A DNA stretch of 49,689 nucleotides from a phage. The position numbers and the translations under genes were made by a program. The notes under the pieces are model-generated. The model did not search any database, had not been told where the DNA came from, and saw only the letters and a list, made by a program, of their open reading frames with translations. Below, one piece after another: positions 6,239-19,921 of this stretch (positions are counted from its first letter, which is position 1; each line of letters begins with the position of its first letter). Where the stretch lies: the sequence record NC_105788.1; one strand, 5' to 3'.

Positions 6239-6454
6239 ATGGCTAACAAATTTTTAGTAGTTCGCGTTTACAATCACTCAAACGGTACTAGTAGTGAGAT
6301 TCCTACTCTTTACAGCAAGACTGATGGGTGGACTGAAGAAGCGGCGGTGGCGAACGAGAAGAAGGTCGCTGAGATGTACGGCGACACCTGTGAAATTGAA
6401 GTTCGCGAATACGCAAAACTCACGAACGAAAGTTACATGTGGGCTGATGCATAA
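6239..6454 (+). CDS. hypothetical protein (71 aa)
   Basis: ATG 6239 after GAAGGA RBS (internal start of ORF 6113..6454). Confidence 0.5.
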   Translation: MANKFLVVRVYNHSNGTSSEIPTLYSKTDGWTEEAAVANEKKVAEMYGDTCEIEVREYAKLTNESYMWADA

Positions 6455-6458
6455 AAGA

Positions 6459-6487
6459 AAAGGAGGCTTACGCCTCCTTTTTTTCGT
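6459..6487. terminator. bidirectional intrinsic terminator (AGGAGGC-TTAC-GCCTCCT flanked by A-run and T-run)
   Basis: GC stem plus T8 on + strand and A-run upstream; lies between convergent + and - transcription units. Confidence 0.7.
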
Positions 6488-6872
6488 CCTTACGAATTGA
6501 AAAATAAACCAGCAACAGGCCAATGAAAACGAGAGTCCATCCTACAATTGCATCGTACCAGTTTTCCGGTTTTGTTACTGTGATGCTTTCAGCGTTAACC
6601 GTGTTAGCCTGAATGGTTGACACTTCAATTGACTTCTTCAAGGAAGAGTCAATCTTTCCTACATTGGACTTCTCAACTTTAACATCTCGCTTATCTTCGG
6701 ATTTTGCGGTTACTCCTGCTAATTGCTTTGTGTTCTCCTCTCCGATTTGTGCTGTAACTTCCGGTTTAGATCCGATTAAACCGCTCATGGCAGATGCCGT
6801 CGAGCAACCGGATAGAGAAATAACACCAACAGCAACAGCAATCGCAATGCACGTTTTCTTCATTCTCATCAT
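6468..6872 (-). CDS. unimolecular spanin (u-spanin, T1 gp11-like)
   Basis: N-terminal lipoprotein signal with lipobox LSGC plus C-terminal transmembrane helix ([20 protein letters not shown]); directly downstream of endolysin with ATGA start/stop overlap. Confidence 0.75.
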
Positions 6873-7357
6873 AGTTCCTTAACGCAATACGCGTATTCTT
6901 CAGCGCGTCGGTTCTTGAGTCCTCTAGACACTTCGCGCTTTTTGGTTTTTGGGTTGTAGTAGTATACCCATCGCCATAACTGATTGCACGCTTCCTTGTG
7001 CTTACTCTGATTTATTAGCTTAAGCATTGTAGACGATCCGAACGCGCCAGTCCCAACGTTGAAAGTGAAGCTATACAGTGATGCGCGCATAGTTACCGGG
7101 ATATCAACCTTCACCTTTTTGTCGACGTATCGCTGAGCGACGCCGATATGTTTTATCAACAAGGCATCGCATTCTCGCTTAGTGTATTTCTTACCAGGTA
7201 TGACGTCAGGCCCGGTTATTCCGCTGCATACGGTAGGGACTCCGGCGATATCGTAATAAACCTCGTATTCTATACCTTCGATCCGTTCCAGTAGGGTAGG
7301 TGTCAACGTCAAAGCGGCCCCGATTGATGCGCCTATAACGTTATTTTTTAAACTCAT
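6869..7357 (-). CDS. SAR endolysin (lysozyme, phage 21 R-like)
   Basis: Gly/Ala-rich weakly hydrophobic N-terminal SAR-like segment followed by E..D..T lysozyme-type catalytic region; strong GGGGGAG RBS; position between holin and spanin. Confidence 0.7.
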
Positions 7358-7572
7358 TATCTCCCCCTGATCTTAAGCGCCTTATTTAGATCGCCATCGT
7401 TTAACGCCTCCTGAATTGCCTTACTATCACGATACTTCCAGTACGCTCCCCAGGCGCCAAAAAGCAGAAAGCAAATGAATGTAGCGCCAGCAATATAAAG
7501 TTGCCCTGTCGCCGCCCCTACCAACGAAGCGCCGCCTGTGCTGGACGTCGCAGCGGTTAAAAATTCTTTCAT
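7357..7572 (-). CDS. holin (pinholin-like, about 71 aa)
   Basis: small membrane protein immediately upstream of SAR endolysin; start chosen at internal ATG with GGTGAG RBS; upstream TTG start of ORF track not supported. Confidence 0.6.
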
Positions 7573-7690
7573 AATCTCACCATATATTTTTTGAACAAGT
7601 GAGTCGATTTTAACCTTCAAATTTACTTGATACAACGCAAAAAGGCCAGCATGTAAACCATGCCAGCCTGTAAGGTGATGAATGATATTG

Positions 7691-7867
7691 TTAATCTATC
7701 GCAATAAATTCCAGATAGCTGCCGTTCAGAGGAGCCTGGATTGCTGAACCTCGCCCGTCGTAAATCTCAAATAATCCCCCACCGAAATCATAACCAACAC
7801 TATAGATCTGATTTACGCGGAATGGAAGTGTTTTGGAGTCATTTCGGATGCACTTAACTCGTTTCAT
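7691..7867 (-). CDS. hypothetical small protein (58 aa, below ORF-track cutoff)
   Basis: manual translation MKRVKCIRNDSKTLPFRVNQIY...; AAGAGGA RBS 6 nt upstream; coordinates approximate. Confidence 0.4.
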   Translation of the reverse strand: MKRVKCIRNDSKTLPFRVNQIYSVGYDFGGGLFEIYDGRGSAIQAPLNGSYLEFIAID

Positions 7868-7921
7868 GATATATCCTCTTTGTTTTCGTTGTGGTTACTA
7901 TACCCGAATCCCTTCGGGCGT

Positions 7922-7939
7922 CTTTATCAATTAGTGCGA
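7922..7939 (-). promoter_or_regulatory. degenerate box copy (GCACTAATTGATAAAG) followed by hairpin CCCGAA..TTCGGG and TATAGT
   Basis: resembles box cassettes; overlaps stop codon of 7931..9082. Confidence 0.4.
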
Positions 7940-9082
7940 TCCTGTCATTTCTGGACGATATATGAAACGACCGATTTCCCCAAACTGCTTATCGTAAACA
8001 ATTACCGCCGCCTGGCGATACGATCGCCACCCTCCGCGTGCTGCGTATGCATCTTTCGCGCCTAACTGGCCGTGTACTTCATCAATACCAAGCGAGTGCT
8101 CAGTGATTGTCTGGTGATGCCAGTGACCACTATGAGTATACACATACTTGCTCTCGCCGAAGTCTGATCGGAAATCTGCCGCCATTGCTGCAAGTCTCGT
8201 ATCTGCCTTCTTCATAGTGTGACCGTGAGTGTATCCCAACAAAGTATTTCCCCAACGAGTCTTATGCAGAATCATAGGACTAACATCAACGAATACTCGC
8301 GGCTCGTCTTCATAATATGCCGACATTGCAGCTCGCAGCCAAATCATCCCAGACTGATCGTGGTTCCCTTCGATAACCTGGACCTCGACTTCTTTGTGTT
8401 TCATAAGCATTTTGTCGATGGCGCGACGCACAGAACGAATCGCTACATGCACCAATTTCGCATATCGTGAATCCTGATCCAGAACGTGACCGCTTGCCGG
8501 GGTAACAGCGTCAAGGCCGTCAGAGTGAAGGAAGTCGCCACCGATTAACAGAACAGCCTTCTCTGCGTTCGGCGCAATATCGATCGCGTAATTAAAGAAG
8601 TCGCTAAGCACTTTTTCCGCTACGTCGGTGGAATAGTTCTCACCGCATTCATGCTTATGAGCAAGCGCGCCAATATGGAGATCGAATACCGGATAGAGTG
8701 CCAGCTTACCCATCGCTGTCGTAAGCCCTTGCGAGGTTAGTAGCTCGGTTGGCTTTGCTCGCGGCAGGTCTTCACAGAATGCAATACGCGCCGCTTCCAT
8801 CATTGCCGCAATCTTCTCACGGTCCTGATCGGTTTTAACCCAGCGCACTACCTCGGTCCCATCTCCGCGAATCATCGTTGATGTGCCTTTTACCATGAAT
8901 CCTTCCGGTACGTTCTTAGCAACATGCTCGTTACCGTGGAAGTGGCCTTCTTTTGCCAATTTTGCGTGGCGAGCTTCAACCGTGCGAATGTGCATACCGT
9001 ACTTTTCCGCGATCTCGCGAAGTGTAAGTCCGTTCATGCGTTCTTCGATAAGTTGCTCGGTAGTGATTTTAGATTGTGACAT
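7931..9082 (-). CDS. HTH domain fused to calcineurin-like metallophosphoesterase (Mre11/SbcD-like nuclease or PPP-type phosphatase)
   Basis: N-terminal helix-turn-helix-like segment (LTLREIAEKYGMHIRTVEARHAKL); metallophosphoesterase motifs DLHIG, GGDFLHSD, GNHD, GHTMKK, GHWHH; AAGGA RBS. Confidence 0.65.
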   Translation of the reverse strand: MSQSKITTEQLIEERMNGLTLREIAEKYGMHIRTVEARHAKLAKEGHFHGNEHVAKNVPEGFMVKGTSTMIRGDGTEVVRWVKTDQDREKIAAMMEAARIAFCEDLPRAKPTELLTSQGLTTAMGKLALYPVFDLHIGALAHKHECGENYSTDVAEKVLSDFFNYAIDIAPNAEKAVLLIGGDFLHSDGLDAVTPASGHVLDQDSRYAKLVHVAIRSVRRAIDKMLMKHKEVEVQVIEGNHDQSGMIWLRAAMSAYYEDEPRVFVDVSPMILHKTRWGNTLLGYTHGHTMKKADTRLAAMAADFRSDFGESKYVYTHSGHWHHQTITEHSLGIDEVHGQLGAKDAYAARGGWRSYRQAAVIVYDKQFGEIGRFIYRPEMTGSH

Positions 9083-19664: not shown

Positions 19665-19693
19665 GCAATCACACTAACGACGAGGACATGCAA

Positions 19694-19921
19694 ATGAAAA
19701 AGTTAATCACCATTATCGCTGCGGCATTCATTCTGACTGGTTGCTCATCGATGCCTGAGCGCACTTGCACGGCAATTTATGAATCAGGTGGAGCGGAGTA
19801 CTCGGTTTACGTTTTTGGCTCTAAGATGCGCGGAAAGGAGATGGTATTGCGTGCTGGATACCCATTCTCCTTCAACTATGTATCAGAGAAAAACTTCAAA
19901 TCTCACGATTGCTCGATATAA
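19694..19921 (+). CDS. cor: Cor-like small outer-membrane lipoprotein (superinfection exclusion candidate)
   Basis: about 75 aa, signal peptide with lipobox LTGC; own promoter and terminator; position next to fibre genes matches cor of T1/phi80-type phages. Confidence 0.6.
   Translation: MKKLITIIAAAFILTGCSSMPERTCTAIYESGGAEYSVYVFGSKMRGKEMVLRAGYPFSFNYVSEKNFKSHDCSI

Follow-up and report, generated by a model that had tools for sequence, protein, structure and literature searches.

Most probably (roughly 0.88), the minus-strand region 6468-7572 of the analysed phage DNA is a T1-like lysis cassette which is gene-for-gene orthologous to genes 13, 12 and 11 of T1, the proposed mechanism included. 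The whole stretch of 49,689 nt (NC_105788.1), referred to as the window in the following, corresponds to Escherichia phage CLB_P3 (OL770108.1; 100% DNA identity) of the genus Tunavirus, in line with the T1-like assignment given in a preliminary description of the sequence. The cassette type itself is already known: for T1 and related phages, descriptions go back to 2007, with a further one in 2018, and the parts of T1-like cassettes carry the published annotations pinholin, SAR endolysin and u-spanin (PMC4559738, PMC6139136, PMC11447400, PMC13164509). The following elements are considered here, ordered from upstream to downstream on the minus strand:

7691..7867, minus: DUF7244 (SH3-clan) gene, orthologue of T1 gp14; 58 aa; PF23896, 2.2e-28
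7643..7669, minus: intrinsic-terminator-like hairpin between the DUF7244 gene and the holin gene; 11 bp stem, then TTTTTGCGTT
7357..7572, minus: holin gene, orthologue of T1 gp13; 71 aa; ATG start with GGTGAG ahead
7501..7563, minus: weakly hydrophobic segment, candidate SAR-like TMD1 (holin residues 4-24; 76% Gly/Ala/Ser/Thr)
7438..7500, minus: the one clear transmembrane helix (holin residues 25-45); the C-terminal tail behind it is charged
6869..7357, minus: endolysin gene, orthologue of T1 gp12; 162 aa; GGGGGAG ahead of the start
7289..7345, minus: putative SAR domain (endolysin residues 5-23, Lys4 ahead)
6468..6872, minus: spanin gene, orthologue of T1 gp11; 134 aa from ATG 6872; AAGGA ahead
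6804..6815, minus: lipobox LSGC (spanin residues 20-23; Cys23 as lipidation site; regex match)
6495..6551, minus: C-terminal transmembrane helix (spanin residues 108-126), followed by the cytoplasmic tail RKDEKKEA
6458..6481, bidirectional: intrinsic terminator with a GGAGGC/GCCTCC stem between an A-tract and a T-tract (terminator scan)

Reading the minus strand from 7572 to 6468 gives three consecutive, overlapping ORFs for holin, endolysin and spanin, and the region runs exactly from the holin ATG to the spanin stop. The preliminary description had named these limits as well as TAATG and ATGA junctions, and both are confirmed. The holin/endolysin junction reads ...AGA TAATG AGT with an overlap of 1 nt. 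At the endolysin/spanin junction (...CTATGATGAGAATG) the first ATG shares 4 nt (ATGA) with the TGA stop. All three products match PHROG profiles of the expected function, namely phrog_2877 (holin, 1.9e-38), an endolysin profile (1.5e-50) and phrog_1804 (Rz-like spanin, 6.2e-47). Together with the Pfam matches and the identity to T1, this places the cassette genes far beyond chance.

The comparison with T1 gp11-13, which had been proposed as a check, yields 100% identity for the holin (gp13), 99% for the endolysin (gp12) and 77% for the spanin (gp11, with 133 of its 134 residues aligned). The window and T1 (NC_005833, genes 13, 12 and 11) agree in gene order, strand arrangement and overlapping junctions, and also in the LSGC lipobox, the upstream gp14 (DUF7244) gene, the intergenic hairpin and the downstream terminator. 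Of the three proteins, the spanin has diverged most; the majority of its 30 substitutions fall in its periplasmic part or TMD. An additional 71-aa ORF (6239..6454, plus strand) is present in the window, flanked by the spanin gene and the gp10-like gene, where T1 has only ~120 nt.

Another difference concerns the endolysin stop codon, which is TGA in the window but TAA in T1, whereby the TGA creates an extra upstream ATG. T1 gp11 starts at the next ATG, equivalent to position 6869 of the window. A start at this position results in a TGATG junction with a 1-nt overlap and a spanin of 133 aa, and nearly all spanin homologues are 133 aa long. Based on the T1 start position and the length of the homologues, the conserved spanin start is thus probably ATG 6869, and the ATGA overlap probably just follows from the stop being TGA here. 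A valid lipoprotein signal is obtained from either start.

The flanks of the cassette resemble T1 as well. Just upstream of the holin gene lies the gene for the DUF7244 protein, which is 93% identical to T1 gp14. It has been reported to be genomically linked to the lysis cassette and proposed as a lysis accessory in Drexlerviridae (PMC13164509). The intergenic region between this gene and the holin gene is 98% identical to T1 and contains the hairpin 7643..7669 (fold -18.3 kcal/mol, z = -3.0). A consensus scan found no promoter between the hairpin and the holin gene; by eye a weak TTGTAT-17-TAAAAT is seen, for which we make no claim. At the other end, the TAA stop of the spanin gene sits in the loop of the terminator 6458..6481, which also ends the convergent plus-strand gene 6239..6454. 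Its RNA folds with -18.4 kcal/mol (z = -4.2) on the minus strand and with -19.4 kcal/mol (z = -4.8) on the plus strand, and in the T1 record the corresponding position carries an annotated terminator. The preliminary description was right about the three genes but missed the adjoining DUF7244 gene, the terminators on both sides and the probable second-ATG start of the spanin.

The third gene product is predicted, on solid sequence grounds, to be a unimolecular spanin of the T1 gp11 family. Its N-terminal signal consists of MMRMKK and a hydrophobic core, which is followed by LSGC. Ser24 at position +2 of the lipobox points to sorting to the outer membrane, and an Asp inner-membrane retention signal is not present. 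The C-terminal helix at residues 108-126 is the most hydrophobic segment of the cassette (mean Kyte-Doolittle hydropathy, KD, 2.33; Hessa sum -1.6). Both elements are kept in the family, which speaks against the concern raised beforehand that homologues might lack one of them. A lipobox is found in 81 of 82 spanin homologues (LSGC in 73; Ser at +2 in 78, Ala in 3), the sole one without it being a truncated record. The threshold for a C-terminal TMD is passed by 79 of 82; the remaining three comprise one truncated record, one probably frameshifted sequence and one marginal case.

T1 gp11 carries an LSGC lipobox and complements lambda Rz/Rz1 mutants (PMC6139136). The threshold for the u-spanin family was set in the same study at ≥40% identity over ≥40% of the length, and the window spanin passes it with respect to T1 gp11. 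No Cys is present in the periplasmic part of the mature protein, as reported for u-spanins (PMC6139136). A scan of all minus-strand frames between 6300 and 7950 found no second lipobox ORF besides the spanin. An embedded or overlapping o-spanin was therefore rejected as a candidate, and since the only lipobox on the cassette strand belongs to the spanin, a separate o-spanin is absent.

With lambda Rz/Rz1 the spanin shares the role in the last lysis step, namely linking inner and outer membrane across the periplasm, and T1 gp11 substitutes for Rz/Rz1 (PMC6139136). In contrast to Rz/Rz1, it is a single polypeptide with no sequence similarity to these proteins and no periplasmic cysteines. Moreover, its periplasmic domain is predicted to be beta-rich and not coiled-coil as in Rz/Rz1 (PMC6139136). 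The endolysin, as detailed below, is homologous to that of phage 21. The spanin of phage 21 is two-component, while the one in the window is unimolecular.

It might be argued that the third gene merely encodes a lipoprotein with no part in disrupting the outer membrane, such as a Cor-like superinfection exclusion protein, this task then being left to another factor. The GenBank record of CLB_P3 calls the product 'hypothetical protein', several relatives 'lipoprotein', and another small lipoprotein ORF is present in the window (19688..19921). We regard this as highly improbable. The identity of 77% is to a protein that complements Rz/Rz1 (PMC6139136), and the signal for an outer-membrane lipoprotein is combined with a C-terminal TMD, which would be absent from a Cor-like protein. 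Furthermore the gene is the last of the cassette and overlaps the endolysin gene directly upstream, the order holin-endolysin-spanin with an upstream exonuclease being found in 508 of 522 Drexlerviridae (PMC13164509), and the cassette holds no other spanin candidate.

The second gene encodes a GH24 muramidase of the T4-lysozyme type, R21 family (Pfam PF00959, Phage_lysozyme, 2e-33). Its nearest solved relatives are R21 of phage 21 (PDB 3hde, phmmer 1.4e-34) and DLP12 RrrD. The identity to R21 amounts to ~55% over residues 23-139, as counted by hand from the alignment. The catalytic triad E27-X8-D36-X5-T42 is invariant in 37 sequences, and E-X8-D-X5-T occurs in both the window endolysin and R21, whose N-terminal segments are also alike in being free of Cys. 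The AF2 model (pLDDT 88.5) fits full-length R21 (3hde) with a TM of 0.85, compared to 0.62 for the truncated form (3hdf).

The prediction of a SAR endolysin is well supported by sequence, family conservation and structure model, in agreement with the preliminary description. Lys4 is followed by 19 uncharged residues (5-23; 47% Gly/Ala/Ser/Thr, mean KD 1.13), and residues 1-43 contain no Cys. In the model this SAR-like segment lies inside a helix of residues 3-27, which continues to the catalytic E27. The architecture is conserved: among the homologues with a recognisable catalytic triad, an uncharged N-terminal stretch of 14-20 residues occurs in 117 of 117, with one to three K/R ahead in 115. 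In the literature, T1 gp12 goes no further than a 'predicted' SAR endolysin (PMC11447400). SAR-type N-terminal segments on a T4-lysozyme fold are likewise known from P1 Lyz and Lyz103 of Erwinia phage ERA103, and P1 Lyz (1xjt) matches the endolysin model structurally with a TM of 0.75. In those two enzymes, however, a Cys of the SAR domain uncages the active site. It is absent from the window endolysin, hence this mechanism is inapplicable.

The N-terminal segment is rather weak for a SAR domain. Compared to R21 the N-terminal region is 8 residues shorter (E27 versus E35) and less hydrophobic. Within its own family the segment is near the bottom (KD 1.13; median 1.84, minimum 1.02). The KD of 1.13 contrasts with 1.99 for R21 and 1.68 for P1 Lyz, and the Hessa sum of +6.8 with +1.5 and +3.3, respectively, the P1 Lyz values being provisional. 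Both of these SAR domains are also longer than the segment. In the R21 sequence used for the comparison, residues 19-147 match those of the PDB alignment. Only three residues separate the end of the segment from E27. Given the weak hydropathy and the closeness to the catalytic residue, stable membrane insertion is not guaranteed.

This leaves room for the reading that the N-terminus is a cleavable Sec signal peptide, or that it is too weakly hydrophobic for Sec, in which case the endolysin would be cytoplasmic and dependent on holin holes. In addition to the hydropathy, it could be held in favour of cleavage that A-L-A, a possible signal-peptidase site, closes the hydrophobic core in many homologues, and SAR domains and signal peptides are not known to be reliably distinguishable by sequence. 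In the window endolysin, the corresponding residues are A-L-T and then L-T-P. Reading the N-terminus by eye gave no good signal-peptidase site: each candidate has a residue disfavoured by signal peptidase I, either Thr at position -1 or Pro at position +1. Cleavage would moreover put E27 ~5 residues from the new N-terminus and strip the helix on which the active fold of full-length R21 depends, as reflected by the two TM values given above. For R21 the SAR mode is established by experiment, an active lysozyme that is secreted freely would lyse the cell too early, and the almost universal sequence of K/R and uncharged stretch in the 117 homologues speaks for a functional signal, be it for export or for anchoring. 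Taken together we consider a cleavable or cytoplasmic form unlikely, and it is quite likely that the endolysin is tethered to the membrane and released from it.

It is for the holin that the preliminary description is least secure. The label pinholin agrees with published annotation, and the hydropathy of the protein resembles the TMDs of S21, the pinholin of phage 21, but sequence similarity to S21 is lacking and a single helix is predicted with confidence. Both holins are similar in size, and in both a weakly hydrophobic segment precedes a strong one, with a charged tail at the end. Residues 4-24 have a mean KD of 0.63 and a Hessa sum of +8.7, compared to 0.52 and +8.6 for S21 TMD1. For residues 25-45 the KD is 1.53 versus 1.50 for S21 TMD2 (top 19-residue window 1.81, Hessa sum +0.2). 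The S21 sequence used here was checked and has a 100% match in phage 21. The first segment closes with a conserved ATGQ motif and remains uncharged in close homologues. As TGQ alone separates the two segments, there is no true loop, and the uncharged stretch extends over 42 residues. The holin thus differs from S21 in the inter-segment loop, and it also differs in the dual-start motif and in sequence, for which BLASTP against S21-68 gave no alignment with E ≤ 100.

Homologue searches led to the same picture. The word-indexed search returned 11 homologues and an exhaustive HMMER search of 1.84 billion representatives 10; the matches of the latter are short proteins of the same family, bar a few spurious low-complexity ones. 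Neither search linked the holin to S21 or to another characterised holin, and no characterised holin family was matched in the Pfam version used, while the homologues carry the Pfam family PF27028 by precomputed assignment. In the AF2 model a helix comprises residues 24-58 (pLDDT 81-85) and is the single confident one; the overall pLDDT is poor (65), too low to tell one TMD from two, and falls below 50 for residues 12-20. Since S21 similarity is absent, one TM helix is confident and TMD1 matches in hydropathy only, the pinholin label is the weakest of the three calls for the cassette.

Some gene callers start the holin at upstream in-frame TTG codons. A dual-start antiholin from TTG 7635 or 7620 was rejected: a Shine-Dalgarno sequence is missing, the codons directly follow the terminator hairpin, and there is no Met-Lys-Met motif.

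Instead of a pinholin, the protein could be a holin with a single TMD (N-out, C-in) or one forming large holes, with which the SAR endolysin would simply be paired. SAR endolysins do not need a pinholin, as P1 Lyz pairs with the canonical holin LydA. Residues 25-45 are the only strongly hydrophobic segment, the AF2 model has one confident helix behind a disordered N-terminus, the RefSeq record of T1 states for gp13 'contains single transmembrane domain', and BLASTP gives no similarity to S21. On the other hand, the N-terminal segment is close to S21 TMD1 in hydropathy and small-residue content and stays uncharged in close homologues, and the stretch of 42 uncharged residues could hold a helical hairpin. 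In the annotation by several groups (PMC4559738, PMC11447400), moreover, the T1-like holin is a class II pinholin whose two TMDs leave both termini inside (N-in, C-in). We thus take the single-TMD or large-hole form to be a possible but less probable reading, whereas the analogy to S21 makes it reasonably likely that the holin works in pinholin mode. Nanometre-scale holes that depolarise the membrane but retain the endolysin would fit the context, as the holin gene is paired with that of a SAR-type endolysin, and would agree with the published annotations. Our literature search found no experimental study of T1 gp12 or gp13.

Based on these features, lysis by the cassette may proceed as follows. 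The overlapping stop and start codons would couple the translation of the three genes. Their coding stretch lies between the upstream hairpin and the downstream bidirectional terminator, which may mark the transcript boundaries. The holin would gather in the inner membrane, anchored by the helix 25-45 and with its charged C-terminus in the cytoplasm. By analogy to S21, segment 4-24 would first reside in the membrane and then exit, giving rise to small holes; triggering at a set time would collapse the membrane potential. The endolysin would be exported by Sec, and the uncleaved residues 5-23 would keep it restrained and tethered to the inner membrane. Depolarisation would free this segment, which, as in R21, could then form the N-terminal helix on the catalytic body and position E27, D36 and T42. 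As the SAR-like segment contains no Cys, activation is expected to be of the 'steric' kind of R21 and not of the disulfide kind of P1 Lyz.

The spanin would be processed as a lipoprotein at Cys23 and directed to the outer membrane by Ser at +2, whereas the helix 108-126 would stay in the inner membrane. A single polypeptide with two anchors, both recognised in the sequence, would thus cross the periplasm. After loss of the peptidoglycan mesh, the spanin would disrupt the outer membrane, probably by fusing it with the inner membrane as in the published model.

The cassette could also differ from the phage 21 model, namely with an endolysin that is only marginally membrane-tethered, the conserved upstream DUF7244 protein as a fourth lysis component that might bind peptidoglycan or endolysin and lend extra control, and the holin as an independently evolved pinholin family; we regard this combination as rather improbable. 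For the T1-like cassette, the results matter little beyond annotation. The spanin and the DUF7244 gene, both labelled 'hypothetical protein' in the record of CLB_P3, can be assigned to the u-spanins (T1 gp11 family) and to DUF7244 (SH3 clan), respectively.

The region 6300-7800 matches Escherichia phage CLB_P3 (OL770108.1; Drexlerviridae, Tunavirinae, Tunavirus) at 100% over its full length in a megablast search, and about 60 more T1-like Escherichia and Shigella phages at 91-96%. Three ORFs follow each other on the minus strand between 6468 and 7572, labelled 'holin', 'lysin' and 'hypothetical protein' in the CLB_P3 record. Direct comparison with T1 (NC_005833) reveals the same gene order and spacing, with identities of 100% for the holin (gp13), 99% for the endolysin (gp12, 2 substitutions) and 77% across 133 residues for the spanin (gp11). 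The cassette, from a deposited phage genome, represents a system described before. Its preliminary description as a T1-like cassette of pinholin, signal-anchor-release (SAR) endolysin and unimolecular spanin (u-spanin) is confirmed as an observation and supported in its interpretation, the pinholin label being the least secure element. The features are listed below.

9082..7931, minus strand: DNA repair exonuclease gene (phrog_704), upstream of the DUF7244 gene
7867..7691, minus strand: DUF7244 (SH3-clan) gene, 58 aa, directly upstream of the holin; 93% identity to T1 gp14
7669..7643, minus strand: terminator-like hairpin between DUF7244 gene and holin, 11-bp stem and T-run
7572..7357, minus strand: holin ORF, 71 aa, upstream ribosome-binding motif GGTGAG
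7357..6869, minus strand: endolysin ORF, 162 aa, upstream ribosome-binding motif GGGGGAG
6872..6468, minus strand: spanin ORF, 134 aa, upstream ribosome-binding motif AAGGA
6481..6458, both strands: symmetrical terminator with the spanin stop codon in its loop
6239..6454, plus strand: 71-aa ORF (phrog_27210, unknown function), converging on the spanin

At the holin/endolysin junction (AGATAATGAGT) one base is common to the TAA stop and the following ATG, while at the endolysin/spanin junction (CTATGATGAGAATG) the overlap between the first ATG and the TGA stop is 4 bases long. Reading of the minus strand shows that the boundaries 6468-7572 and both junctions had been described correctly. In T1, the gp12/gp11 junction is TAATG and the gp11 start codon corresponds to window position 6869. 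The additional ATG upstream, at 6872, arises solely from the TGA that ends the endolysin in place of the TAA of T1, and the ATGA overlap at 6869-6872 is confined to genomes with TGA as endolysin stop. Since the T1 start lies at the position matching 6869 and spanin homologues are nearly all 133 aa long, the conserved start is probably 6869 (TGATG, 1-nt overlap), three bases downstream of 6872, giving 133 aa. The protein features are unchanged by this choice.

The third gene carries both anchors by which a u-spanin is defined, a lipobox and a C-terminal TM helix (Kongari et al., PMC6139136). In a rule-based analysis, a positive N-terminus (MMRMKK) leads into a hydrophobic core, and residues 20-23 form the lipobox LSGC, which is also the one reported for wild-type T1 gp11 (PMC6139136). 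The C-terminal helix (residues 108-126; mean Kyte-Doolittle hydropathy, KD, 2.33; Hessa sum -1.6 kcal/mol) is followed by RKDEKKEA, and by the same analysis the periplasmic part of the mature protein is free of cysteine. The lipobox cysteine is followed by Ser, and because Ser at +2 directs lipoproteins to the outer membrane by the Lol sorting rule, this membrane is the predicted destination. The u-spanin call had been staked on homologues keeping lipobox and TM helix, and it stands: 81 of 82 homologues have a lipobox (LSGC in 73) and 79 the C-terminal hydrophobic helix. The single one without lipobox (P0054) is N-terminally truncated; those without a clear transmembrane domain (TMD) are truncated (P0053), probably frameshifted (P0055) or marginal (P0080, KD 1.74). 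The most conserved block in the spanin alignment A2 is residues 32-57, just past the lipidated Cys and near the outer-membrane anchor, with L32, P37, A41, Q42, G44, E46, N47, K49, Q50, G53 and K57 invariant. As no other lipobox ORF was found on the minus strand at 6300-7950, a hidden o-spanin is excluded there. The lysis defect of lambda Rz/Rz1 mutants is reported to be complemented by T1 gp11 (Kongari et al., PMC6139136).

The endolysin belongs to Pfam Phage_lysozyme (2e-33), its best solved sequence relatives being R21 of phage 21 (3hde, 1.4e-34) and RrrD of prophage DLP12 (4zpu). Alignment of 37 diverse homologues shows an invariant triad E27-X8-D36-X5-T42 and four invariant cysteines in the catalytic domain (C44, C63, C124, C158), three of which align with R21 cysteines; they suggest conserved periplasmic disulfides. 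The AlphaFold2 (AF2) model from this alignment (pLDDT 88.5) has residues 3-27 as one helix running into E27. It best matches full-length R21 (3hde, TM 0.85) and RrrD (4zpu, TM 0.82) in the PDB, while truncated R21 (3hdf) reaches a TM of only 0.62. The N-terminus consists of one Lys and 19 uncharged residues (47% Gly/Ala/Ser/Thr, no Cys). All 117 homologues with recognisable triad have such a stretch of 14-20 residues, preceded by 1-3 K/R in 115, with the catalytic Glu near residue 27. Judged from sequence, this architecture is how a SAR endolysin of the non-disulfide (R21) type is expected to be built. Its conservation and the R21-like sequence and modelled fold support the predicted SAR assignment; in PMC11447400, T1 gp12 is termed 'a predicted SAR endolysin'. 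In hydrophobicity the segment ranks near the bottom of its family (KD 1.13 vs a median of 1.84 and a minimum of 1.02), well below the SAR segments of R21 (1.99) and P1 Lyz (1.68), and stops three residues short of E27. By eye, no convincing cleavage site for signal peptidase I is seen in the N-terminus, where candidate sites carry either Thr at -1 or, at +1, Pro; an A-L-A motif is present in many homologues.

The identity of the first gene as a holin is secure (phrog_2877 'holin', 1.9e-38; PF27028 on its homologues). Residues 4-45 form a 42-residue uncharged stretch ahead of a highly charged C-terminal tail, whereby only residues 25-45 are clearly hydrophobic and residues 4-24 are 76% Gly/Ala/Ser/Thr. 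The KD values of both segments (0.63/1.53) nearly equal those of TMD1/TMD2 of the phage 21 pinholin S21 (0.52/1.50), with Hessa sums of +8.7/+1.2 vs +8.6/+2.9; the S21-68 sequence used was confirmed at 100% in phage 21. Although hydropathy is S21-like, BLASTP gave no similarity whatever to S21, and the weak AF2 model (pLDDT 65) has a confident helix at 24-58 only. The RefSeq T1 note gives a 'single transmembrane domain'. An exhaustive search of 1.84 billion representatives yielded only a small family of proteins of ~70-80 aa. The protein is annotated as class II pinholin in PMC4559738, PMC11447400, PMC6139136 and PMC13164509. Hence the holin part of the earlier call holds, while 'pinholin' is a reasonable analogy that we favour somewhat.

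The published three-step pathway is the best-supported model for the cassette. Orthology, the spanin anchors with their conservation, and the endolysin triad, fold and conserved N-terminal architecture were observed here. Holin triggering would depolarise the inner membrane. The tethered endolysin would then be released, refold in the R21 manner and break down peptidoglycan. The u-spanin, anchored in both membranes, would be freed from the peptidoglycan mesh and disrupt the outer membrane, probably via membrane fusion. Whatever concerns membrane dynamics, hole size and fusion is inferred.

The hairpin 7669..7643 (-18.3 kcal/mol, z = -3.0) is conserved in T1, where the DUF7244-holin intergenic region is 98% identical. 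A consensus scan found no sigma-70 promoter match between it and the holin. Such a strong hairpin ahead of the holin implies that the lysis genes would be transcribed by read-through or from their own promoter. The terminator 6481..6458 folds well on either strand (z = -4.2 and -4.8) and is common to the spanin and the convergent gene 6239..6454. T1 has only ~120 nt at the position of the latter, which is therefore an accessory gene in CLB_P3 and some relatives.

The gene order agrees with the published conserved one of exonuclease, SH3, holin, endolysin and spanin (PMC13164509). The DUF7244 gene product, 'hypothetical' in the CLB_P3 record, matches Pfam DUF7244 over its full length (2.2e-28). 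This SH3-clan protein occurs in 188/522 Drexlerviridae, always adjoining the lysis module, and was put forward in 2026 as a candidate accessory lysis factor (PMC13164509).

A second small lipoprotein ORF (19688-19921, plus strand, 77 aa) has an LTGC lipobox and a weak match to PF24052 'Phage lipoprotein'. It was ruled out as a spanin for want of a C-terminal TMD and is possibly a Cor-type superinfection-exclusion lipoprotein as known from T1-like phages.

By tblastn the spanin family is found in 1123 phage records, chiefly of Klebsiella and Escherichia phages and often labelled u-spanin or Rz-like spanin. A T1-family u-spanin is also encoded in 21 records named 'Campylobacter phage' (host C. 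jejuni, ~50 kb); in the one listed, phage A139 (MG065681.1), it is 52% identical. These host labels look doubtful, and the phages appear to be T1-like enterobacterial ones.
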